Assembly (NCBI GenBank): GCA_000092065.1
Contig: CP000583.1
DNA: 64,000 bases
Source of the DNA: Ostreococcus lucimarinus
Taxonomy: Eukaryota
Strand: one strand, 5' to 3'
The notes below the pieces were generated by a model. It did not search any database, had not been told where the DNA came from, and saw nothing but the letters and a program-made list of their open reading frames with translations. Each line of letters starts with the position of its first letter. The first letter of the stretch is position 1. The position numbers were made by a program, and so were the translations under genes. Positions 7,500 through 55,202 of the stretch are shown here, piece after piece.

Positions 7500-7635
7500 A
7501 TCGGTGCTTTTTCGATTAAATACGTAAAGTAGGGTTTACGTGGTGCGTCGACGTCGATGCGTCGCGCGCTTATCCGGCGCGCGCCGCAGACGACGACGCG
7601 CGCGCGCCACGCGAGCGGCGCGCGACGCGGCGCAC

Positions 7636-10600
7636 ATGACGCCCGCATCGCGCGATGCGCGCGCGAGCCCGCGCGGTGCGGCGCGCGCGACGCGAGCGCC
7701 GCGAATGCGCGCGCGGCGCGGCGACGTCGCATCGTCCCGAGGACGACGACCGCGCGCGCCGCGCCCGCGCGCGAGCGTCGACGAAGAGCGCTCCGAGCGC
7801 GCGGACAGCGCCGACGGTGCGTCGACGAGCGCGAGGCGGCCGACGATGGAGCTGCAGATGACGCCCGCGAGCGGGGCCCCGTTCGGGGGGTCCAGGGTGG
7901 TGGACTTTGTCGCGGCGTGGGACGCGATATCGCCGCGATTGGCGGCGCGCGAACACGGAGAGGCGGACAAGGAGATGCTGCTGAGCGCGTTGACGCTCGC
8001 CATACCGCGGCTGCAGCAGATCGTGCGAACGGAAGGGAAAGGAAAGAAGCCGGCGCACGAGCGAGCGGTGGACGTGACGCTCACGCTCGTGGACATGGGG
8101 ATGGACGCGGAATGCATCTCCGCGGGATTGCTTCGAGAGGCCGTGGTGCACGGGACGGTGAGTTTGGATGAGATAGAGGACGTGCTCGGGGAGCGGGTGA
8201 TGCGGTTGGCGCACGATGTGGGGCGAGTGCACGATTTACCGAGACGAGTGCACTCGTACGACGAAAACGCGGCGGAACGCTTGCGGTCGTTTTACCTGTC
8301 GTTTCACGACATAAGAGCGATCGTGGTGGAGTTGGCGTGCAGACTTGATACTTTGAGAAACATCGATGAGCTTGAGCCGATCCAGCGGACGACGATTGCG
8401 TTGGAGACGATGCAGATTTACGCCCCCATGGCGCACGCGTTGAACACGGGCGCCCTTTGCGCAGAGTTGGAAGATTTAGCGTTTAAGATTTTGTTTCCGA
8501 CGTCTTACGCCTCGCTGGAGAGGTGGCTGACGGCAAAAAGTCCAGGGGACTCGGCCATCTTGGATAAGATGACAAAGATGCTCACGGATACGATGAACGC
8601 CGACACGACGATGAACGCGTTGATCGGCCGCGGAGGGGTCAAGGTTTTGGCGAGAAGGAAATCTCGTTACTCCACCATGAAGAAGATCATTCGCGATGGG
8701 CGAAAGCGTGAAGAGGTGCACGATTTGCTCGGACTACGCCTCGTTTTGACCCCGCAACCTGGGAGTGGGGCGGAATTGCCCGGCATGGGTCAGGTGTATT
8801 CGGGTGAGGTTACGTACGAGCACATGGAGGCGAGAGCGTTAAAAGCGGCGAACGCGGCGTGCTATCGCGCACAGCAAATAGTGCACGGTTTATTTCCAGC
8901 CGTAAGCGGACGAACCAAGGACTACATCAGTGATCCCAAGGCGAACGGATACTCGTCCTTGCACAGCACTCTCAAGGTCGCGTTTGGCGACGACGGCAAA
9001 CCTTTGGCGTCGAGCGAAGCGTACAAACGCGGCGTGAATGTCGAGATGCAGATCCGAACGGCAGCCATGCATCTCGCCGCTGAAGCGGGCACTGCGTCGC
9101 ACAATTCGTATAAGGGTGGCTTGAAGGAAGACACGGGTATGGCGGGCTCGCTCGCGGACTTGGCCTCGGCAGCGAATCGCGCCGCGGAGGAAAAGTTTGG
9201 CGCTTTCACGCACGCCGATTTGCGCGAACGCGACGAACTCCACGACAGATTGTTCGAAGCATTCGATCTTGATGGTGATGGTCGCGTCACGATGAGTGAG
9301 CTGCGTACGGTACTGGAGAAAATATGGGACACGGAGATGAACGATTTGCGCGAGGAAGCTCACGCGTTGATGGAGCTCCTCGACGTTAACCAGGATGGTA
9401 CTATCGACGCTGATGAATTTGCAAAGTTCCGCGCGTCGCTCACCGCGATTAGTGCGCTACCTAAAGCGGATGCGGCGACCTTGGCGGCGATTGAAGCCGT
9501 TGCGATTGACGTTGAGATCGCCGAAGACGCGCCGGCGGCGCAAGTCGAGGACAAAGCTTTGGTGATTGACGTCAACCCCACGGAGGTGCCCACGGGTGAA
9601 AATATCGAAGAGAAGGCCGAATTGATAGCCACCGTGCGCGCGAAGGTACGAGCCGCGGTATCTGAGAGCTACGAGTACACCGGTAAAGTAGATTTAGCCG
9701 GGCGCAAGGCAACTGCGGCGATGCGCGATTCCGAGTCGGGTCCGGTGGAATGGCAACTGGTGTGGGATTTGATGCGAACTGGTCGAGCCGAGACAGCGCG
9801 TCAACTGTTTTACCAGCGTACTACGCGAGCGCCGAGTCAGATTCTTGTATGGGAGCAGTGGGCACGTTTTGAGCTTCTTCAAGGAGACCCCGAACGCGCG
9901 CGAAGCCTCTACCGCGCTGCATTGTTGCACTGCGAAGATCAGCCCATGGTGCGGGCCGAAATTTTGCGAAAATGGGCCATGATGGAGATAGTATCCACCG
10001 ATGCGCTGCACCAAACGTCTCATTCTGATTTGTTTTCTCGCACGATTGCGGTGCTGGCAGAGGCTCAGAGCAAAGGGCGCATCACTGCCGAGGAGTCTGG
10101 CTCAGCGCAAGCGAAGACGTACCAAGTTTGGGCGCAGGGGCTCGCTCGTGCGGGGAACATCGACGAAGCGAGAAAACTTTTGGATAAGGCTATCGATCTG
10201 GACGAAAACAATGCAGCCGTTGCGCACGCTCAAGGGCAAATCGAGGAAACGCTCGATAACTTCCCGGCAGCCATCGCCGCGTATCGTCGGGGTCTCGAAG
10301 CGAACCCGAACGACGCCTACTTGCTTCAGTCGTGGGGTCGAATCGAGGCGAAGATGGGTCGTTTGGACAACGCTCGAAAGCTGTTTAGACACGGCGTCGA
10401 AACAAACGAGGAAAATTACCACATTCCCCAGGCTTGGGCGGTGAGTGAGGCGGAGCATCCAGAAGGCGACGCGGCGACGGCGCGTGAAATGTTTCAACGC
10501 GCGAGCTCACTCGCGTACTGGTCCGTCCAAACCTGGGCTGCTTGGGCGCGCTTTGAACTGGACGCGGAAGATAACGAGCAAAGGCTTGAAACTGCGCGCA

Positions 10601-11175
10601 CGCTGTATGAACGCGGTCTCGATGCCGAACCCGGGAACTTGGTGTGTCTCGTCGGCCTCGCAAAGTGCGAGAGTCGACTCGGTCGCTTTGGCGCCGCCCG
10701 CGAAACGCTTCGCCGAGCGAACGCCATCCATCCCGATTCCTCAGCTCTGTGCTTCGCCCAAGCCAGACTCGAAGAAGCCGCGGGCGCGCCCGCGAAAGCC
10801 GCCCACCTCTACCAAAAAGCTCGCCAACTCCAAAAAGAAAGCCGCAAGAAAAAGTCGCGCGTCTCGACGCGCGGTCGCGGTTCCCGCTCCACCTGGGACC
10901 CCGTCGAAGCGTTCGAACGCCAAGAAATCGCATCGGCATCCATCATCTACGCCACCACCGACGACAACCACTTCGCCCACATGGACGAACAAGACGCCAA
11001 CGGCTTTTCCGAGGACGAAAAGCGTCGCTCGAGCGACGATTTGGGCAGTTACGAGCCCCCTCGCTCGTACGAGCGTCGCCGCGTTCGCAAGACGCGCCGC
11101 GCGCCCTCGACGCGCGTCGCCCCGCGCGCCGCCGACGACGACGACGTCCTCGGCAGTAGCCTCGACTCCCTTTAA
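7636..11175 (+). CDS. RelA/SpoT homolog of CRSH type with a C-terminal HAT (half-a-TPR) repeat region, in one uninterrupted frame. The N-terminal HD-like domain has a degenerate HD motif; it is followed by a (p)ppGpp synthetase domain and two EF-hands
   Basis: Synthetase motifs (RRKSRYSTMKKI..., YISDPKANGYSSLHSTLKV, EMQIRTAAMHLAAEAGTASHNSYKGG). EF-hands DLDGDGRVTMSEL and DVNQDGTIDADEF. HAT-like W..WA.FE repeats from about residue 740. The ORF track starts at GTG 7540; the first ATG is 7636 (later ATGs are possible). Confidence 0.8.
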   Translation: MTPASRDARASPRGAARATRAPRMRARRGDVASSRGRRPRAPRPRASVDEERSERADSADGASTSARRPTMELQMTPASGAPFGGSRVVDFVAAWDAISPRLAAREHGEADKEMLLSALTLAIPRLQQIVRTEGKGKKPAHERAVDVTLTLVDMGMDAECISAGLLREAVVHGTVSLDEIEDVLGERVMRLAHDVGRVHDLPRRVHSYDENAAERLRSFYLSFHDIRAIVVELACRLDTLRNIDELEPIQRTTIALETMQIYAPMAHALNTGALCAELEDLAFKILFPTSYASLERWLTAKSPGDSAILDKMTKMLTDTMNADTTMNALIGRGGVKVLARRKSRYSTMKKIIRDGRKREEVHDLLGLRLVLTPQPGSGAELPGMGQVYSGEVTYEHMEARALKAANAACYRAQQIVHGLFPAVSGRTKDYISDPKANGYSSLHSTLKVAFGDDGKPLASSEAYKRGVNVEMQIRTAAMHLAAEAGTASHNSYKGGLKEDTGMAGSLADLASAANRAAEEKFGAFTHADLRERDELHDRLFEAFDLDGDGRVTMSELRTVLEKIWDTEMNDLREEAHALMELLDVNQDGTIDADEFAKFRASLTAISALPKADAATLAAIEAVAIDVEIAEDAPAAQVEDKALVIDVNPTEVPTGENIEEKAELIATVRAKVRAAVSESYEYTGKVDLAGRKATAAMRDSESGPVEWQLVWDLMRTGRAETARQLFYQRTTRAPSQILVWEQWARFELLQGDPERARSLYRAALLHCEDQPMVRAEILRKWAMMEIVSTDALHQTSHSDLFSRTIAVLAEAQSKGRITAEESGSAQAKTYQVWAQGLARAGNIDEARKLLDKAIDLDENNAAVAHAQGQIEETLDNFPAAIAAYRRGLEANPNDAYLLQSWGRIEAKMGRLDNARKLFRHGVETNEENYHIPQAWAVSEAEHPEGDAATAREMFQRASSLAYWSVQTWAAWARFELDAEDNEQRLETARTLYERGLDAEPGNLVCLVGLAKCESRLGRFGAARETLRRANAIHPDSSALCFAQARLEEAAGAPAKAAHLYQKARQLQKESRKKKSRVSTRGRGSRSTWDPVEAFERQEIASASIIYATTDDNHFAHMDEQDANGFSEDEKRRSSDDLGSYEPPRSYERRRVRKTRRAPSTRVAPRAADDDDVLGSSLDSL

Positions 11176-39912: not shown

Positions 39913-40123
39913 ATGCTGCGCGCGACGCGCGGAGGGATGGCGTGCGCGTCGATGGCGCGCGCGCGGGCCGCGCGGGCCGCGACCCCGACGCCGCGATGCG
40001 TCGCGGCGGCGGCGTTCGGACGCGGACGCGCGGGCGCGGGGAAGGCGATGACGGTGCGCTTCGGCGTCGGGGCGACGCGCCGAGGCGCGGCGCGAGGGAA
40101 GTCCGCGAGCGTGGGCGGTGGGA

Positions 40124-40165
<42 letters not shown>

Positions 40166-40770
40166 GCGACGGCGGTGGCGACGGCGCGGCGGGCGGCGTT
40201 CAAACGTTGTGGGCGGCGTATCTCAACGCGCTCGAAAAGAATCCGTTGGCGACGAAGTGCGCGACGAGTGGGGTGCTGAATGCGTTGGGTGATTTGTTTG
40301 CGCAGTTTTCGTTCGATGACGCCGCGAAGAAGGGGATCGATTGGCGTCGGGCGGGCGTGTTTACGTTTCTCGGCGGCGCGTTGGTTGGACCCGCGCTGCA
40401 CTTTTGGTACGGCACGCTCGGGAAGATTGTCACCGCGCAAGGCAGCGCCAAGGCGTTCATCAGCTTGGTTTTAGATCAAGGTTTGTTCGCGCCGGCGTTT
40501 TTGTGCGTGTTTTTGAGCTCGCTGTTCACGATCGAAGGCAAGGCGAGCGAAATCGTTCCCAAGCTCAAGCAAGATTTTGCGCCGACGGTGATGGCGAACT
40601 GGAACATCTGGATCCCTTTCCAGTTCTTGAATTTCCGTTTCGTTCCGCTGAACTTGCAAGTCGCTGCCGCTAACGTCGTGGCGCTGTTATGGAACACGTA
40701 CCTCTCGTGGGCGTCGCACAAGGAAGTCGTCGTCGAGACGGCGAGCAAAGGAAAGAAGAGTAAGAAGTAG
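39913..40770 (+). CDS. Mpv17/PMP22-family membrane protein with an N-terminal transit-like peptide and a poly-Gly tract
   Basis: WAAYLNALEKNPLATKCATSGVLNALGDLFAQ ... NWNIWIPFQFLNFRFVPLNLQVAAANVVALLWNTYLSW are typical of Mpv17/PMP22. A (GGC)12 run at 40126..40163 encodes G13. Confidence 0.8.
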
Positions 40771-40831: not shown

Positions 40832-42037
40832 TCAAATCGTCGCCCCCGAACACGAAGACCCCGAGCCCGCGGTGCAGCCGAAACAATGGTTGTCCGCGAC
40901 GATGCGCGAGCCGACCAAGTCGTCGCACGAGTCGAGATCGAAAATTGTCTTCTTCTCATCGCGCACCGGCATGTCGAGTTGTTGGTTGAAGTCGCAGTCG
41001 TACAGCGTTCCATCCCAAGACACGCTGATCAGATCACGGCACATTACCCCCACCGAAGCCGCAACGTTGAAATTTTCGACGAGTAAACTCATGTACTCGC
41101 TCGTCTTGCCCTCGCGATGCAAATAATCGGCAAAGCGCTTGATGGGCATGTTCGTCAACGTGAACAATCGCGAGAATTCCACGCCCCAAGTATCTCTCAA
41201 CTCGCTGCGGTACGCCACCTCTAGGTTTTCTTGCGCCGGTGGCAAGAATGCTCCTCCAGGATTATACATGAGATCGAGCTCGAGCCCCGAGCCTTCGACC
41301 CCGTATCCGACGGCGTTCAAGTCGCGCAACGCCGCGATGGATCTTTCGAACACCCCTTTTCCTCGCTGCGCGTCCGTGTTCGCCTCGCTGTAACATGGTA
41401 ACGAAGCGACTACTTTGACCTTATTTTCTGCCAAAAACTGTGGCAAATCCTCCTGCCCCTCCTCGTACAGCACCGTCAAGTTGCACCTGTCGATGACGTC
41501 GACGCCGAGCGCCCTCGCCTCGCGAACGAGAAATCTAAACTGCTCGTGCAACTCGGGCGCCCCCCCAGTGAGATCCAACGTCTTCACGTTCGAAGAATTT
41601 TTCAGCACGCGCACCACGGCTTGCGCCGTCGCCGCATCCATCACCTCCGTCGTGCGCAACGGCGACGATTCCACGTGACAGTGCGCGCACGCCTGGTTAC
41701 AATACAACCCAATGTTTACTTGTAAAATCGTCGTCGGCTCGCGAATCAGCGCCTTCCCCCCTCGCGTCTCGAGATACGACTCGAACGACGGCACCCCGAT
41801 CGTGTCCAGCGCCCGTCGTCGTCGCGCGCGCTCTTCCTTCGTCAGCGCTTTTTGTCCGAGCGTTTCCAGCCGCGTCTTGGCTGTCTGAAACTCGTCATCC
41901 GTCGCCATTTCTGCGAGCGTTTCGTCGATGATGCTGTCGAAACGGCGCGCGACGCGCGCGGAAGTCGTCGAGAACGTCTGTTTGCGCGTCTTCGCGCGGA
42001 GCGTCGACGGCGCGACCGGCGACGCACGGGCGAGCAT
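40832..42037 (-). CDS. Radical SAM/Cys-rich-domain protein of the ArsS family (arsenosugar-biosynthesis radical SAM (seleno)protein)
   Basis: Radical-SAM CNQACAHCH cluster motif plus the family-typical C-terminal Cys-rich tail CFGCTAGSGSSCSG. TGA stop. Convergent with the Mpv17 gene, with about 60 bp between the stops. Confidence 0.8.
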   Translation of the reverse strand: MLARASPVAPSTLRAKTRKQTFSTTSARVARRFDSIIDETLAEMATDDEFQTAKTRLETLGQKALTKEERARRRRALDTIGVPSFESYLETRGGKALIREPTTILQVNIGLYCNQACAHCHVESSPLRTTEVMDAATAQAVVRVLKNSSNVKTLDLTGGAPELHEQFRFLVREARALGVDVIDRCNLTVLYEEGQEDLPQFLAENKVKVVASLPCYSEANTDAQRGKGVFERSIAALRDLNAVGYGVEGSGLELDLMYNPGGAFLPPAQENLEVAYRSELRDTWGVEFSRLFTLTNMPIKRFADYLHREGKTSEYMSLLVENFNVAASVGVMCRDLISVSWDGTLYDCDFNQQLDMPVRDEKKTIFDLDSCDDLVGSRIVADNHCFGCTAGSGSSCSGATI

Positions 42038-42080: not shown

Positions 42081-44042
42081 CTACGGCGTCGAGTCGGCGA
42101 CGCGGTCGTCGTCGTACACGTCTCTAGGAGCAGTGGACACGCGCGGACCGTTTTCGAGATTGAATTTTGTCTCGAGCGAGGTCTTGACCGGGGTTTGACG
42201 GCGCTTAATGAGAGCGATTTCGGATTTGATCTCGTCGAGGCGCTGCTGCGCCGACGACGGCGTCGCCTTGCTCGCGAACGCGGCGCCAGAGCCGAGATCG
42301 GTGACGCGAGACCAACTTGCGCGGGTTTGCGTCGTCGGTGTCGACGTTGGACTACCACGAAGCGTTCGATGGAAGTCAATCGTGGCGCCGAGTTGGGTGC
42401 GCCAGGCCTCGTCGGCGCTCGAAGGCGAGGGCGTCGCCGCGAGACGACCTCGCAAGTCGTGCTTTTCTATTCTCAGACGCTGCACCTCCACGTTGGCTTC
42501 GCGCTGGGCTTGAATCGAGCGCAGCACCGAGGCTTCGGCATCGGCGGTAAAATCGGCGATGGTTTGTTTTGCCGCTTCGATTTGCGCGATTTGACGCTCG
42601 AGATCGATGCGTCGACGCCGTTCCTCGTGAAGCTCGAACTCGAGCTCTTGCTTCGCCATCAAAGCAGAATTCGCGATCGTCGCTTGTTTTTGCGCCTCAA
42701 CCGCGGCATCGCGCGCAGACGCAGTGTGTTTTGACACTTGCATCGCGTGATCTTGTACTTGTTCGGCGCACTCGAAGCGAATCTCTTCTTTTTCACGCGC
42801 CGCCGCTCGTTCGGCATCGCCAATTTTTGCCACCAAGCGCTCAACTTCACCGCTCAACCGCTTGACATCTTTTTCGAAGATTTTCGCCCGATTGATCGCA
42901 TCTGTGCGCTCTTGAAGTGCGATGGCGAGCTCTTTCGAGCTCGTGTGTTCCCGCAAGGTGACGCCATCGATCATTTGCTCCAGTTCAGCGTTACGCGCCT
43001 CCTTTGCAAAGCTCTCTTCCGTTTTCTTCAAAAGCGTCTCCGTCAACCGCACGTTTTCGTCCCTCGCCGCGCGCAAGTGCGCCAGCGTCAACCTTAAATG
43101 TTCATCTGCGGTAGATTTCGCGGAATTTATCACCGCAATCTCACGTCTGAGCTCGAGGTTTTCTTGTACTAACGCCGACTCGGACACCTCGCCGCTTCCC
43201 AACGCGGAGACTTCATTCTTAGCGTGTGCCGCCATGATCTCCGAAGTCTCGGCTCTTCGCATCGCCTTATCACGTTCTTCGCTTGCAATTTGTAAATCTT
43301 TGCGCAGAGCTTCGTTTTCTCGACCCATGACTTCCTCGAGCGAACGATAGCGTTCGAGCTTGAGTCTCTGCTCATCGTAATCGGACCGAAGCTGCGCCGC
43401 GCGTTCTTGCTGAAACTCCAAATTCTTCGTCAGATTCCGCACCTTGATCTCGTAAGACACCGTTGAGTTATCGAAATATCCCTCCTCTGTTGTTCGGCCG
43501 CTTTTTGCCGCCCCCTCGCGCGCTCTCGCCGCCTCTAATTCCGCCTCCGCCTCGCGCAACGCGTCCGAAAGCAACAGATTCTCCTCACGAAGATCCCTGA
43601 CCAACGCGCTCGACGACCCCGACGTCGACGCCGTCGGCGTCATCCTGGCATCACGATCCAATCGTGCGCGCAGACCTTCCCCCCCCCGCGCGCACATCGC
43701 CTCCACGAGCGCCTCCGCCTCGCGCGCGTCTCTCGCCCGCAACCGCATCGCCTTCGTCTCCCCCACCACCACCACCCCGAGCTCCACGTCCGCGCCTCGC
43801 GTCCGCGCGCGCGCGACGCTCGACAGCGGAAACTTCCCCAGCATCGCTCGTCGCGTTCGCGCGCCCGCGCGTCCGCGCGCGCCGTCGTCGTCGTCGATTA
43901 ATCGATCGATGCGCAACCCGCGCGCGGAGACGTCGACCCGCGCGACGACGCCGTCGCCGCGCGCGCCGTCGCCCAGGACGCGCACGTCGAACGTCGCGCT
44001 GTCGTCCTCGCCGCGCGTCGCCGCGGCGGGCATCGCGCGCGA
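42081..44042 (-). CDS. PH-like domain followed by a long myosin-tail-like coiled-coil protein
   Basis: Continuous heptad-rich E/R/A/L sequence over about 550 aa. The N-terminal FDVRVLGDG...GKFPLSS...EAEALVEAM resembles a PH fold. The track ORF extends to 45110 but the upstream part is antisense junk; the first plausible ATG (MPAAATRG) is at about 44042. Confidence 0.5.
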   Translation of the reverse strand, partial: SRAMPAAATRGEDDSATFDVRVLGDGARGDGVVARVDVSARGLRIDRLIDDDDGARGRAGARTRRAMLGKFPLSSVARARTRGADVELGVVVVGETKAMRLRARDAREAEALVEAMCARGGEGLRARLDRDARMTPTASTSGSSSALVRDLREENLLLSDALREAEAELEAARAREGAAKSGRTTEEGYFDNSTVSYEIKVRNLTKNLEFQQERAAQLRSDYDEQRLKLERYRSLEEVMGRENEALRKDLQIASEERDKAMRRAETSEIMAAHAKNEVSALGSGEVSESALVQENLELRREIAVINSAKSTADEHLRLTLAHLRAARDENVRLTETLLKKTEESFAKEARNAELEQMIDGVTLREHTSSKELAIALQERTDAINRAKIFEKDVKRLSGEVERLVAKIGDAERAAAREKEEIRFECAEQVQDHAMQVSKHTASARDAAVEAQKQATIANSALMAKQELEFELHEERRRRIDLERQIAQIEAAKQTIADFTADAEASVLRSIQAQREANVEVQRLRIEKHDLRGRLAATPSPSSADEAWRTQLGATIDFHRTLRGSPTSTPTTQTRASWSRVTDLGSGAAFASKATPSSAQQRLDEIKSEIALIKRRQTPVKTSLETKFNLENGPRVSTAPRDVYDDDRVADSTP

Positions 44043-44520
44043 GTCGCGACGCCGGCCGCGGTCGCGATGTGACGCGACCGGCACTGCACGCCGCGCGACG
44101 CCGCGCGCGCGTCGACGCCGCGACTCGCGCGGACGCGCGAGCGGTGCGCGGCGAGAGAGGGCGCGGTGCGTCGCGACCGCGCGTCTCGCGAGGGCGTCGG
44201 CGCGCGCGAGCGCGAGCGCGAGCGCGATGACGATCGGAAGCAGAGCCGTTACGGCGCGCGCGGCGAACGCGTCGGTGAATCGCGCGTCCACGTCGCGCGC
44301 GCGATGCGACGGCGCGATGGGACGGTTGAGCGCACTCGCGAACGATCGACGCGGACGCGCGAGGACGGGGCGACGGACGCGAGGGAGAGGGACGCGAGCG
44401 AGGGACGGGGACGGGGACGGGGACGACGACGAGCCGGGCGGCGACGGGTACTCCGATCGAGACCGCGCGAGCGGGCGGCGAAGCGCGAGAGAGCGGGCGA
44501 AGAGTCGGGCGGAACGCGCG

Positions 44521-45324
44521 ATGGACGAGGACGACGCGGCGATGCGAGATGCGTTCTTGGACGGGGCGGAAATATTCGCGTTGACGGCGGCGGTGGGCGT
44601 GAAGGCGCGCGCGGCGTACGTGGAACATAAGACGGCTAAAGTGGCGCAGGCGGCGGGATACGTCGAGCATTTACCCCCGAGAGCGGTGACGAGCGTTTGG
44701 GGTGACTTGCCACTGTACGTGGCCGTGGTGGCGGGGACGATTTTGCGAAGGTTGAGTCGAGCGCGGGAGGAGTCAACGGAGGGACGGCTGCAGGGCGTGC
44801 CCAGCTCGGTGAAGGCGAGGCTGGCGTTTTTGGAACAGGCGAACGACAGCGTCATGGAAGTCTCGAGGCGCACGGCGCGAGATGTTTCGCGTTTGGGCAC
44901 GCGCGTGCGGTTGACGAGACGGGAGCTGTCGCCACCACTACGAAAAGTGCAAGCCGAGTCCAAGGAAAACGCGCAAATCTTAGCCGCCGTGGCGCAACGC
45001 ATCGAACTCCTCGAGGGCGAGCTCGCGGAGGGACAATCCACCATGAGTGGACTCCACACCGTGAGCTCCAAGCAGTTCGACGTCTTGTCCAAGGCCATCG
45101 CCGATCTCAAGGCTTCTCAGATCGAGCTTCAGGCCGCGCTCGCCGAGCTCCCGGAGCGCGAGCCGCGCGTCGAGCCCGCGTCGCTCGAATCCGTGGAGTA
45201 CGAGACCGTCTCCGCGTCGCGCGACGAAGACGACGCCAGCGTCAACCACGCTCCCGCGCGCGCTGCGCTTCCTCAGCCGCGCGAGTCCGAGGCCCCGAAA
45301 CCGTCGTCGATGGACTACTTGTAA
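44521..45324 (+). CDS. Hypothetical protein with an amphipathic/coiled-coil C-terminal half
   Basis: Protein-like composition from MDEDDAAMRDAFLDGAEIFALTAAV...; head-to-head with the coiled-coil gene. The alternative ATG 44227 would add a transit-like extension. Confidence 0.4.
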   Translation: MDEDDAAMRDAFLDGAEIFALTAAVGVKARAAYVEHKTAKVAQAAGYVEHLPPRAVTSVWGDLPLYVAVVAGTILRRLSRAREESTEGRLQGVPSSVKARLAFLEQANDSVMEVSRRTARDVSRLGTRVRLTRRELSPPLRKVQAESKENAQILAAVAQRIELLEGELAEGQSTMSGLHTVSSKQFDVLSKAIADLKASQIELQAALAELPEREPRVEPASLESVEYETVSASRDEDDASVNHAPARAALPQPRESEAPKPSSMDYL

Positions 45325-46065: not shown

Positions 46066-46428
46066 GCGACTCGAATCCTCCGCGCCGAGCGGTGGCGCGA
46101 TTCCAAAATCAACGCCGCTCGCGCGCTTCTCTCAAATAGCCCGCGCTCGTCGATGCGATCGCCGTAAATGATTGTTTGTGATCGATGTATATGTTTTGCC
46201 ACATCAGTCGTCGCCTCGGCGCGACCATCGTCTCGCGTCTGCGTCCGCGTCCGCGTTCCGCGCGAGCGCGAGCGCCGAGTCGAGTTCGGCGCGCGCGCCG
46301 CCGCCGCCACACTGCGCGCCGCATCGCGGATGCTCGCGAGATCGCTCGCGGCGCGAAACGCCGTCGTCGTCGCGCGCCTTCACCGCGCCAGCGCGCGTCG
46401 AATCGTCGCCGCGACGACGCGAAGCGAC

Positions 46429-46911
46429 ATGTCCTCCGACGCCCGCGCCCACGGCGACGGCGTCTCCTTCGGCCCGATCGCGATCCCCGGCGCGCAGGTC
46501 TTCTACGAAACCTCTCAGACGTTCGCGCTGGTGAACCTGAAGCCCGTCGTTCCCGGGCACGTCCTCGTGTGCCCGCGGCGCTCGACGCCAAAGTTTACCG
46601 ACCTGAGCGACGAAGAGATATCGGACCTGTGGCGAACCGTCGCGGTGATTCAGCGCGCGCTCGAGCGCGAACACGACACCTCGAGCTCTACTTTAGCGAT
46701 TCAAGACGGCCCGTTGGCTGGACAAACGGTGCCACACGTGCACGTGCACGTGCTTCCGCGTCGCGTCGGCGACTTTGCCAGAAACGACGACGTGTACGAC
46801 GATTTGGAGCGATGGAACGCGGACGGGAGCAAGGCTTTGGACGACGACCGTCCACCGAGGAGCGCGGAAGAGATGCGCGCGGAGGCGGACGCGCTCAGGG
46901 CGCTGTTTTAG
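46429..46911 (+). CDS. FHIT: FHIT-type HIT-family dinucleoside triphosphate hydrolase
   Basis: FGPIAIPGAQVFYETSQTFALVNLKPVVPGHVLVCPRR plus the histidine triad HVHVHVLPR. Confidence 0.8.
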   Translation: MSSDARAHGDGVSFGPIAIPGAQVFYETSQTFALVNLKPVVPGHVLVCPRRSTPKFTDLSDEEISDLWRTVAVIQRALEREHDTSSSTLAIQDGPLAGQTVPHVHVHVLPRRVGDFARNDDVYDDLERWNADGSKALDDDRPPRSAEEMRAEADALRALF

Positions 46912-51607: not shown

Positions 51608-51871
51608 CGCGCGCGATCGCGCGGGAGACGCGAGCGAGACGCGCAGTGCGGGACGGCGCGCGAGCGGGCGAGCCGAACGCGAGCGAGCGGGACCGACGCG
51701 CGAGACGCGCGAGAGTAACACGACGCGCGGGCGCTCGGATCGAGCGAAGATGATTTTACGAACGTGTATTCGTTATTACACATAAGAATCCCACTAGCTG
51801 GGCCACCAAATTCCAAATCTCTCCTCTCTCTCCTCCTCAACTTGCAAAAGCTCCGATGCGACGCATCGCTT

Positions 51872-52426
51872 TTAGTTCATGCGGCGGATGAGCGCGTTGA
51901 TCTTATCTTCGCGGTTACCAGCCATGCCACCTTCGATGAAGTGTTGCTTCTTCACAGTCATCCCGCCGTTCGGGGCGGAGAGCTTGAACGGCCACAAAAA
52001 GTTGGCGCACTCCTTGAAGTGCGGACCGACGGTGTAAATTTCGTGAATCAAGTCTTCGACGCAAATGATCCCCTTGTCGCCGAGGGCTTGCTCAACCACG
52101 GCGTTATCCGTGAGCGGAATGCGCTGCTTGTTCACCTTACCGTAACCACGCTTGTAGATGAGCTCTCTAACCGTCTTCAAGTTCGGGTAACCAAACATGA
52201 TGTACGGCTCCACCTTGCGAAGCTGGTTGAGCGTCGCCTTGTTCACCTTCATGAAAATCCCGTTGTGGATTTGACGCAAGCGAAGGAGCTGGAGAATCTT
52301 CTTCGTCTTCGGGTGAATGTCATTCAAACCGCGCAAGCGCATGACAAACATGAGCTTTTCCTCGGGTTCGACGTAGAAACCACCCTTGGCGCGCGCCTCG
52401 CGCTTGAGACGCACGAGGTCGGCTTC
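51872..52426 (-). CDS. RPL7: 60S ribosomal protein L7 (uL30), exon 2
   Basis: [56 protein letters not shown]... aligns with RPL7 through the C-terminus. A CGCGCAG acceptor precedes the exon. Confidence 0.85.
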
Positions 52427-52665
52427 CTGCGCGCGCGAACAGACGCATCGTCGTCGTCGTTAGTCATCGCGTCCAATCGAGCGTTCGCGAGCGCAACGCG
52501 ACGCATCGTAATGTCGCCTCCGCCTATCAATCGCAAGCGCGCATCCAACACGCGTCGCGCTCATCCCAAGGCCGCCGCGCGACGCGCGCGACGTCCCGCG
52601 ACGTCCCGACGAACCCTAAAACAATCCCATCGCGCCCAGTCACATCGCTCGCTCACATCACGCAC

Positions 52666-52866
52666 CTGGTCGCGGTACTCCTTGACATACTTCTCCGCGC
52701 GCTTGAAAATTTCCTCGCGCTTCTTCTCGCCCGCCTTCTTCGCTTCGGCCGCGGCCGCCGCCTTTTGCGACGCCCACTGCTCGTCGCGTTTGCGCTTCTT
52801 CAGCACGGATTCGGGAACGGTGGAAGGCTGCACGTCGCGCGCGCGAAAGCGTCCTCCGTCAGTCAT
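52666..52866 (-). CDS. RPL7: 60S ribosomal protein L7, exon 1 (MTDGG...KEYRDQ), followed by a GTGCGT donor and an intron of about 239 nt
   Basis: 67 codons matching the RPL7 N-terminal region (…KRAEKYVKEYRDQ versus human EKAKHYHKEYRQM). Confidence 0.8.
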
Positions 52867-53423
52867 CGTTCGTCGCAAACATATCCATCCACCGATCGCC
52901 CTCGATCTCCCTCCCTCTCGCGCCGCGACCGCGCCGACATCGCCCTCCCATCGACGCATCGACGCGCCGCGCGTTAGGGTCACGCATCGCGCGAATCGCG
53001 TGCACCGTCGCGCGCACCGCGCGCGCATCGCCGATCGACGACGCGCGCGCGCGGTGACGAGTGCGAATGCGCGCGTCACGCGCGGTCGCTTCGCGTTCGC
53101 CGCGCACCATGCTCGCGTTCGCGCGTCGAGGTTAGAGGCCGACGAGGTCGCGATCGACGCGCGACGCGCCCGTCCGCCGGCGCGTCGAGGGTCGTGTGTC
53201 GTCGAGTCTTGTCATGTCCGAATGTCCGAATCTCTGCGGACGGTCGATCTCACATCGGCGCGCGCATCGGATCGTACGGTATTCTCGACCGACGAAGATT
53301 CGCGATAAATCGTTTCGCACTGAATGCCCAGGCGATGCACGAACGACGACGCGCCCGCGGCGCGCGAATGCCGAGCGGATCCGAGGCGCCAGATCGACGC
53401 GCGCGCGACGATTCGCGCGAGCG

Positions 53424-54306: not shown

Positions 54307-55119
54307 TTACGTTTTCTTGTACCATTCCGCGAGCTTTTCCATGGGCACGCCGATGTGATAACCTAATATAATTACTTGATTCATCAGAGTCACTTTACTG
54401 AATCCTCGCTCGTCCCATCGCCTGCCGCTCGTCGTCACGGGGGCGCTAAATAGCGCCGGCGCGCCGCGTCGCCGCAACTTTCGCGCCATGATGTAGTCCT
54501 CCATAAACGGTAGCTCATCGAACCCTCCGACGCTGTCAAACGTTTCTCGTCGCATAACCAAAGCCTGATCACCGTAAGGCATTCTAAACAGTCTACACCG
54601 CGCATTCGTCCCGAATTCGATTGCGCGCCGAGTGCACGTTCGAGCGAACCCTTCGTCCTCTCGCTCGCCGCCCATCTTAAATTCGAACGCCCCCCACTCG
54701 CGCGATCGTCCAGTCACGCGTTTCGCCAACGCGCGCGTTATTAACTCCCCGTACCCAGTCGGTAGCGTGCTATCGGCGTGCAGAAACACCAACACATCGC
54801 TCGCGTCTCGCGTCCCCGTCGCCGCCGCCGCCGCCGCCCCCGCGTTCATCTGTCTCCCTCGTCCTCGCTCGCTCCTCACCACGCTCGCCCCGTGCTTCCG
54901 CGCCACGCGCACGGTGGCATCGGTGCTTCCGCCGTCAACGACGATCACGCGCGCGCTCGCGTTCGCGCGCGCGCTCGCGATGGCTTCGCGCACGCGCGTC
55001 TCTTCGTTTAGCGCTGGGATCACCACGGTGAACGACGCCTTCGACGACGGCGCCCTCGACGACGACGCGCGACGCCCATCGCGCGCGTCGCCGTCGCGTC
55101 CCGCGCGATCGAACCGCAT
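54307..55119 (-). CDS. Small GT-A-fold family-2 glycosyltransferase of bacterial type
   Basis: FTVVIPALNEE ... VVDGGSTD ... GT2 motifs in about 270 aa. Resembles the 'rSAM/selenodomain-associated transferase 2' class by recollection only. First ATG at 55119. Confidence 0.7.
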   Translation of the reverse strand: MRFDRAGRDGDARDGRRASSSRAPSSKASFTVVIPALNEETRVREAIASARANASARVIVVDGGSTDATVRVARKHGASVVRSERGRGRQMNAGAAAAAATGTRDASDVLVFLHADSTLPTGYGELITRALAKRVTGRSREWGAFEFKMGGEREDEGFARTCTRRAIEFGTNARCRLFRMPYGDQALVMRRETFDSVGGFDELPFMEDYIMARKLRRRGAPALFSAPVTTSGRRWDERGFSKVTLMNQVIILGYHIGVPMEKLAEWYKKT

Positions 55120-55202
55120 CGCGCGCCGCGTCGACCGCACCGCGCGCGCGGTCAACGAGTGACGATTTGTATTCGTTTCGACTTCAGAACGACGCGCGAC
55201 GC

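Follow-up and report, generated by a model that had tools for sequence, protein, structure and literature searches.

Organic arsenic enters seafood mainly as arsenosugars and arsenolipids made by marine algae, and Chlamydomonas and diatoms are known arsenosugar makers. To our knowledge, only the first committed step of arsenosugar biosynthesis has an assigned enzyme, the radical S-adenosylmethionine (SAM) protein ArsS. We analyzed a 64-kb stretch of nuclear DNA from Ostreococcus lucimarinus (the window), in which a minus-strand open reading frame (ORF) at 40832–42037 encodes an ArsS-family protein and a glycosyltransferase (GT) of family TIGR04283 is encoded 12 kb away. The ORF is likely the nuclear, intronless ArsS of O. 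lucimarinus, with the GT acting downstream of it and the two genes not arranged in an operon-like manner.

ArsS cleaves SAM reductively and adds the resulting 5'-deoxyadenosyl radical to dimethylarsinous acid (DMAs(III)), giving DDMAA (5'-deoxy-5'-dimethylarsinoyl-adenosine), from which adenine is then removed and the ribose derivatized (PMC13598754; bioRxiv 10.64898/2026.04.29.721666). The later arsenosugar steps, adenine removal and riboside formation, are described only in general terms (bioRxiv 10.64898/2026.04.29.721666). Two AS3MT homologs are listed for O. tauri (PMC5398495 supplement), which is cited as methylating arsenic to some extent (PMC5398495).

ArsS of Synechocystis sp. PCC 6803 was compared with the window protein through the family model rather than by direct alignment. 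Both belong to the TIGR04167 equivalog family and carry the CxxxCxxC motif and a DUF3641 domain with five invariant cysteines. The window protein differs in being nuclear-encoded in a eukaryote and in having some 98 extra N-terminal residues, made up of a variable putative presequence and a 64-residue helical region that is conserved in the aligned eukaryotic homologs but not detectably so in bacteria. Its gene is not adjacent to ArsM, and in a neighbor-joining (NJ) tree it belongs to a clade that holds eukaryotes only and does not have the sampled marine picocyanobacteria as its sister group. Bacterial ArsS neighborhoods contain ArsS with TIGR04282/TIGR04283, ArsM, TIGR04169, a flavin adenine dinucleotide (FAD) oxidoreductase and, in some cases, S-methyl-5'-thioadenosine (MTA) phosphorylase. 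The window is like them in holding ArsS and a TIGR04283 gene within 15 kb, and unlike them in lacking an operon, in the nine unrelated eukaryotic genes that separate the two and in the absence of all other components from the 64 kb.

The ArsS orthologue

Searched against NCBIfam, the protein matched TIGR04167, the equivalog model "arsenosugar biosynthesis radical SAM (seleno)protein ArsS", at 430.2 bits (E = 3.9e-129; curated equivalog cutoff 300), and the runner-up family reached only 36 bits. Residues 99–399 aligned to model positions 4–302 of 303 without interruption, showing the gene to be intronless. Pfam placed Radical_SAM and DUF3641 on the protein. Together with the Pfam domains, the E-values of this match and of the GT match to TIGR04283 (1.2e-63) exclude a chance hit for either protein. 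An earlier annotation made from the letters alone (the sequence-only reading) had assigned the ORF to the ArsS family from a CNQACAHC motif and a Cys-rich C-terminal tail. ORF, motif and tail are all present where it placed them, and the TIGR04167 search that it proposed upheld the family assignment.

The ORF contains LYCNQACAHCHVESSP at the CxxxCxxC site (41678–41701), a motif invariant in all 112 aligned sequences (32 eukaryotic and 80 bacterial), and terminates in HCFGCTAGSGSSCSGATI, the tail occupying 40844–40885. All five DUF3641 cysteines (C333, C348, C385, C388 and C396) are present and 100% conserved in the 80 bacterial sequences. With C113, C117 and C120 they are likewise invariant in the eukaryotes, the exception being eukaryotic proteins annotated as ending just ahead of C396. 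This last position is selenocysteine (Sec) in some homologs. An in-frame TGA lies exactly there in ArsS of Cylindrotheca closterium (CAKOGP040002091.1, locus L098, 4573–4575), and the frame past it reads QGATAEE before a TAG; the gene is a predicted selenocysteine form with a truncated annotated protein. Twelve of the best 120 ArsS homologs, including named haptophyte and diatom proteins, stop at the same ...GSS position (P0072, P0073, P0099, P0100, P0105, P0106, P0108, P0111, P0115, P0117, P0118 and P0120).

Upstream of the TIGR04167 core, residues 1–34 are not conserved among eukaryotic homologs in a 12-sequence alignment, and residues 1–32 were modeled with a predicted local distance difference test score (pLDDT) below 50. 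This N-terminus is probably an organelle-targeting presequence. Residues 35–98 are conserved in all 12 of these eukaryotic sequences; in ten bacterial ORFs covering most of the region, 5–12 of the 64 positions are identical. The public model XP_001416889.1 (358 residues) begins at M44 and skips window positions 41909–42037 (residues 1–43). Since that start falls inside the conserved region, the 401-residue ORF is the better gene model.

The AlphaFold model of ArsS (pLDDT 73, predicted template modeling score 0.75) was closest among solved folds to SPASM/twitch-type radical-SAM enzymes, namely SkfB (6efn), BlsE (7vob), SuiB (5v1t), anSME (4k37) and MoaA (1tv7). It appears to share with them a partial TIM-barrel core and a C-terminal Cys-rich domain, yet the match is only a distant one (template modeling score 0.40–0.46, 11–17% identity). 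No solved structure was found when the ArsS and TIGR04283 families were each searched for one, and fold searches with both proteins returned superfamily-level matches only. The predicted folds favor a reading of the pair as ArsS and a downstream transferase, the first model being of radical-SAM type with a C-terminus resembling SPASM/twitch domains and the second of GT-A type.

By analogy with the characterized cyanobacterial enzyme, a [4Fe-4S] cluster on C113, C117 and C120 would cleave SAM reductively. The 5'-deoxyadenosyl radical would then add to dimethylarsinous acid supplied by an ArsM encoded elsewhere in the genome, with DDMAA as the expected product. The DUF3641 domain, whose five invariant cysteines include one that is Sec in some algae, may hold an auxiliary cluster, the arsenical or both. 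Because every invariant residue is kept, and in view of the equivalog score, Ostreococcus ArsS would be expected to perform the same chemistry.

Both proteins are already labeled by homology in public databases. Existing JGI pipeline labels on cluster members read "radical SAM/Cys-rich protein" and "rSAM/selenodomain-associated transferase 2", and the Chlorella vulgaris ArsS homolog already carries a UniRef name beginning "Arsenosugar biosynthesis radical...". ArsS here is the expected orthologue of a known enzyme, and the advance is incremental, since the identifications follow from existing curated models that are already part of automated annotation.

The TIGR04283 glycosyltransferase and its bacterial associations

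The GT matched TIGR04283, "arsenosugar biosynthesis glycosyltransferase", at 214.7 bits (cutoff 182, NCBIfam), followed by AglJ at 47 bits and a dolichyl-phosphate hexose transferase model at 24 bits. With the next family at just 47 bits, it is not a dolichol-phosphate-mannose-type or ordinary family 2 glycosyltransferase (GT2), and the sequence-only reading was right to liken this 270-residue protein to an ArsS-associated transferase. Pfam identified Glycos_transf_2 and no DUF2064 domain in the protein. The ORF itself reaches a TTG at 55155 (54307–55155, minus strand; 282 residues). AlphaFold predicted a GT-A fold (pLDDT 86.6). Its best PDB matches were WrtF, a Leptospira GT and glucosyl-3-phosphoglycerate synthase (GpgS), which are small soluble GT-A enzymes, and all top matches were GT-A enzymes.

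The window GT retains all examined positions that do not vary among 111 bacterial TIGR04283-type sequences: D62-G-G-S65-x-D67, R87, Q90, F-L-H114-A-D116, G183-D-Q185, E207-D208 and R233-R-W235. The His and Asp of the HAD motif are invariant across a 136-sequence alignment of these and 25 Mamiellales-like sequences. The family thus has an invariant His-Ala-Asp at the site where GT-A enzymes usually have DxD. The window GT resembles bacterial TIGR04283 members (rSAM/selenodomain-associated transferase 2) in its score above the cutoff, its predicted GT-A fold and the DGGSxD, R87, Q90, FLHAD, GDQ, ED and RRW elements. It differs in being stand-alone with a short low-complexity N-terminal extension, whereas many bacterial members are fused or adjacent to TIGR04282/DUF2064, and in lying 12 kb from ArsS, as against 0–3 kb in bacteria, with no TIGR04282 in the window. 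Many bacterial homologs are 660–750-residue fusions of GT2 with DUF2064 (TIGR04282-like), often with an added NTP-transferase domain, PF12804 (P0339–P0425); those with a taxon name are mostly from Planctomycetota/Phycisphaerae. Fusions of GT2 and DUF2064 of 430–470 residues are likewise common.

Bacterial ArsS neighborhoods were surveyed using one genome per bacterial or archaeal species. The 80 loci with ArsS most similar to the query (44–59% identical to the algal protein) were retained, ORFs within 8 kb of ArsS were clustered, cluster representatives were named with NCBIfam, and the families were recounted with a coverage filter. The most frequent neighbor was a MerA/GR-like FAD-containing disulfide oxidoreductase (NF004991; 27 of 80 loci). 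It was followed by TIGR04283 (24, usually on the same strand as ArsS and less than 3 kb away), an ArsM-like methyltransferase (20), TIGR04282 (16), the AhpD-like protein TIGR04169 (11) and MTA phosphorylase (9). At least one of these six families occurred in 59 loci, and the four marine picocyanobacterial loci had none of them inside the 8-kb limit. The co-occurrence of ArsS with two small GT-A families, claimed in the sequence-only reading, is therefore seen in the TIGR04283 and TIGR04282 counts. Because these families cluster with ArsS in bacteria, a functional link between ArsS and TIGR04283 is plausible, and the association with MTA phosphorylase suggests that adenine may be removed from the ArsS product by phosphorolysis.

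When the bacterial neighbor proteins were searched against the window by tblastn, the GT was the only match; ArsM, TIGR04282, TIGR04169, MTA phosphorylase and the FAD oxidoreductase are absent from the 64 kb. The 23 bacterial ArsM-like sequences gave no ArsM in the window by tblastn, and Pfam scans of 32 window ORFs also detected none of these five families, with the ORFs at ~21.5–28 kb covered by tblastn alone. A HIT-domain gene (46168–46911) was considered as a pathway nucleosidase and dropped, since it is one of the genes of the wider synteny block and lies away from ArsS in Micromonas-like contigs.

Arsenosugars are beta-ribofuranosides, and GT2 enzymes work with inversion of configuration. 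The most plausible role for the GT would be formation of the beta-riboside bond to a glycerol-type acceptor after adenine loss. More speculatively, MTA phosphorylase and a CofC-like TIGR04282 protein could supply ribose-1-phosphate and then a nucleotide-activated donor in bacteria. The features of both genes are collected in Table 1.

Table 1. Positions of the ArsS and GT features and of the gene adjoining ArsS (window coordinates)
Feature	Position	Strand	Remarks
ArsS orthologue, coding sequence	40832..42037	-	401 residues, single exon, ATG start, TGA stop
ArsS N-terminal residues 1–34	41936..42037	-	variable, rich in Arg/Ser/Thr/Ala
ArsS helical N-terminal region, residues 35–98	41744..41935	-	ahead of the TIGR04167 core
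CNQACAHC, CxxxCxxC motif (C113, C117, C120)	41678..41701	-	radical-SAM [4Fe-4S] cluster binding
DUF3641 C-terminal Cys-rich domain, residues 265–401	40835..41245	-	PF12345, 182 bits, residues 265–399
CFGCTAGSGSSCSG tail	40844..40885	-	CxGCTxGxGSS(C/U) type; last Cys is C396, codon TGT
GT-A glycosyltransferase, TIGR04283 family, coding sequence	54307..55119	-	270 residues from ATG at 55119
GT H114-A115-D116	54772..54780	-	counterpart of the GT-A DxD metal/donor motif; family-invariant
Mpv17/PMP22-family gene	39913..40770	+	tail-to-tail with ArsS; 61 bp separate the stop codons

Ancestry, linkage and alternative explanations

Among the best 120 matches listed, ArsS homologs at 53–66% identity (nearly all 55–65%) were spread across algal lineages: chlorophytes, prasinophytes, streptophyte algae (Klebsormidium, Chlorokybus and Mesostigma), diatoms, a xanthophyte, a haptophyte and a cryptophyte. 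An NJ tree was built from 32 eukaryotic and 80 bacterial sequences, the bacterial set being biased to those closest to the query. The eukaryotic sequences formed one clade in 99 of 100 bootstraps, with a Mamiellales clade in 98. Judged from these sequences, ArsS is pan-algal and vertically inherited within eukaryotic algae, and it is probably an ancient, shared gene of photosynthetic eukaryotes, with Sec variants in diatoms and haptophytes.

The GT gave a different picture. A profile of 25 Mamiellales-like GTs retrieved no other named eukaryote among its best 120 matches, which comprised Mamiellales-like clusters (~25–30 in the clade) followed directly by bacterial sequences, these being fusion proteins. 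The closest tree neighbors of the clade were stand-alone bacterial GTs, including one from Nostoc (NJ, limited sample). ArsS and the GT thus appear to have different histories. Phylogenies of both genes had been proposed in the sequence-only reading as a check of bacterial or cyanobacterial ancestry; the single eukaryotic ArsS clade and the bacterial neighbors of the GT emerged, but a clade joining eukaryotic ArsS to picocyanobacteria did not (0 of 100 bootstraps). Cyanobacterial ancestry of algal ArsS is accordingly unsupported in this NJ tree, which sampled four marine picocyanobacteria and no freshwater cyanobacteria or Synechocystis.

Compared with its counterpart on a contig of an Ostreococcus-like relative, the window ArsS shows 82% identity, a level close to that of the AAA ATPase and glycerol-3-phosphate dehydrogenase; the GT shows 55% and retains every invariant residue. 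The much faster evolution of the GT would fit an enzyme with no functional relation to ArsS, a bacterial-derived soluble GT-A protein that acts on another small-molecule acceptor and lies nearby by coincidence. The lack in the window of its usual bacterial partner TIGR04282 and the absence of other ArsS-bearing algae from its best 120 matches agree with this. So do the small-acceptor enzyme GpgS among its nearest solved structures and the genomes of Coccomyxa, Nitzschia and Cylindrotheca, in which no GT2 gene was found near ArsS. This explanation is nevertheless unlikely, if a serious one: the protein passes the equivalog cutoff of a family defined by its association with ArsS-family genes, it retains all residues invariant in the 111 sampled bacterial homologs, and ArsS and the GT were both recovered from Ostreococcus-like and Micromonas-like sequences.

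Several further points weigh against reading ArsS and the GT as successive arsenosugar enzymes. Our literature searches found no biochemical data on a eukaryotic ArsS, no experimentally established function in family TIGR04283 or TIGR04282 and no report of arsenosugars in Ostreococcus. The "arsenosugar" name of these two transferase families rests on co-occurrence. In 60 of the 80 bacterial loci no ArsM-like gene lies within 8 kb of ArsS, many bacteria that carry ArsS are not known as arsenosugar makers, and the window lacks ArsM, TIGR04282, TIGR04169 and MTA phosphorylase. Among the best 120 profile matches there was also no TIGR04283 homolog from the arsenosugar-making, ArsS-bearing Chlamydomonas or diatoms, and on this evidence the GT appears to be no universal pathway step.

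The spread of the ArsS family over many bacterial phyla without known arsenosugar production also raises the question of whether the label has been over-extended from one cyanobacterial enzyme, with ArsS-family protein and GT acting on a non-arsenic substrate such as another metalloid, a selenium compound or an unrelated 5'-deoxyadenosyl adduct. An ArsM-like neighbor in just 20 of 80 loci, and in none of the four picocyanobacterial ones, would be in keeping with this. The MerA/GR-like oxidoreductase as commonest neighbor, the recurring AhpD-like protein and the Sec forms of ArsS hint at thiol or selenol redox chemistry. We consider a non-arsenic substrate improbable, as the equivalog model is anchored on characterized ArsS, its cutoff is passed by 130 bits in the window protein, the enzyme is highly conserved, with 50–59% identity between alga and bacteria, and ArsM-like genes are the third most common ArsS neighbor. 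Algae are moreover the classic arsenosugar producers, which the spread of ArsS over algal lineages fits.

The gap between ArsS and the GT is 12,269 bp, and both genes lie on the minus strand inside 14.3 kb. Between them are nine unrelated genes in both orientations, encoding a coiled-coil protein, two unknowns, HIT, Ist1, mitochondrial glycerol-3-phosphate dehydrogenase, Sel1, RPL7 and ENT. The arrangement belongs to a ~30-gene synteny block common to Ostreococcus relatives. The gene order from SOUL-ABC via the GT and ArsS to TCP1 recurs in an Ostreococcus-like relative (JGI metagenome contig), and a third Ostreococcus-like lineage shares the GT side of the block. Bathycoccus prasinos retains the ArsS side (Sel1-G3PDH-HIT-x-ArsS-Mpv17-AAA-Atx10-GNAT-TCP1, G3PDH being the glycerol-3-phosphate dehydrogenase), and its GT candidate P0137 is on a 4.4-kb contig without informative neighbors. 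In high-GC, Micromonas-like assemblies ArsS stands in the context CoatomerE-RecQ-x-ArsS-Mpv17-AAA and the GT in Prp19-SOUL-ABC-LSM-SIR2-GT-ENT-RPL7-gyrB, and neither was found within 10 kb of the other.

Synteny extends equally to about 20 flanking genes. Because of this, and of the different contexts in Micromonas-like genomes, the linkage is a feature of a large Bathycoccaceae synteny block rather than a conserved gene pair. ArsS and the GT are independently transcribed nuclear genes, and lying 12 kb apart they do not make up an operon-like unit. The module of bacterial origin that the sequence-only reading had envisaged as retained is not supported, given the nine intervening genes, the general synteny and the apparently differing gene histories.

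The O. lucimarinus genome is ~13 Mb in size, and the a-priori chance of finding two named genes within ~14 kb of it is ~0.2%. This figure, the shared strand, the linkage retained in several Ostreococcus-like lineages and the adjoining of the two families in 24 bacterial loci are what a degraded bacterial operon, transferred as a unit into a Mamiellales ancestor and split by gene insertions, would leave, but such a remnant is very improbable given that ArsS groups with all other algal ArsS (99 of 100 bootstraps) and not with a Mamiellales-specific bacterial donor, that the listed GT matches among eukaryotes are Mamiellales-like only and the two histories differ, that nine housekeeping genes in both orientations lie in between, that the contexts in Micromonas-like contigs are separate and that an equally syntenic flank shows no pair-specific selection.

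Returning to the reading of the ORF as ArsS with a downstream GT, a more far-reaching version can be formulated. TIGR04283 would be the enzyme that makes the arsenosugar beta-riboside bond, by a route drawn from families clustered with ArsS in bacteria: MTA-phosphorylase-type adenine removal from DDMAA, optional nucleotide activation by TIGR04282 and inverting GT-A transfer to a glycerol-type acceptor. Mamiellales would have acquired the GT from bacteria independently of the ancestral pan-algal ArsS. We offer this version tentatively and regard it as rather unlikely in full. If true, Ostreococcus would be a minimal, genetically tractable eukaryotic system (ArsM, ArsS and GT) for the whole pathway. 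The ArsS of this abundant picoeukaryote is intact and strongly conserved, and the GT is an intact representative of a transferase family found clustered with ArsS in bacteria, which makes it a concrete candidate for a later arsenosugar step in a small genome. The locus is chiefly valuable in offering a simple eukaryotic setting in which later steps such as riboside formation could be assigned.

The window and its other genes

The window is nuclear DNA of O. lucimarinus, ordinary for a prasinophyte. The GT protein matches a UniRef entry of Ostreococcus sp. 'lucimarinus' with 100% identity along its full length, and the ArsS protein shares a 90%-identity cluster with XP_001416889.1/ABO95182.1, "predicted protein [Ostreococcus lucimarinus CCE9901]". 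We ruled out that the contig is mis-binned or a bacterial contaminant, because ArsS and the GT are embedded among eukaryotic housekeeping genes (TCP1, Ist1, Prp19, a mitochondrial carrier and an intron-containing RPL7) in synteny with other Mamiellales. Other genes in the window include an AAA ATPase, Mpv17, HIT, mitochondrial glycerol-3-phosphate dehydrogenase, Sel1, ENT, ABC-F, SOUL, asparagine synthase and an RSH protein.

Two long ORFs in the region overlie real genes. The 1009-residue ORF at 42081–45110 (minus strand) is a composite of the kind typical for GC-rich DNA; synteny instead places a coiled-coil protein at ~42129–43478 (minus strand) and a separate gene at ~44524–45141 (plus strand). 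RPL7 corresponds to 51875–52818 (minus strand, two exons) and lies beneath a spurious 514-residue plus-strand ORF (51764–53308). At 7540–11175 (plus strand) lies a 1211-residue RelA/SpoT homolog whose HD and RelA_SpoT domains are found in fusion with EF-hands and a long TPR region. It has the appearance of a plant/algal RSH-type (p)ppGpp enzyme that responds to calcium.

The Mpv17/PMP22-family ORF has a long Gly run in its N-terminus. Its adjacency to ArsS is kept in every Mamiellales context with an identifiable downstream neighbor (Bathycoccus and Micromonas-like contigs) and probably also in the Ostreococcus-like relative, where the neighbor is 82% identical to the window gene. This adjacency probably reflects plain synteny.

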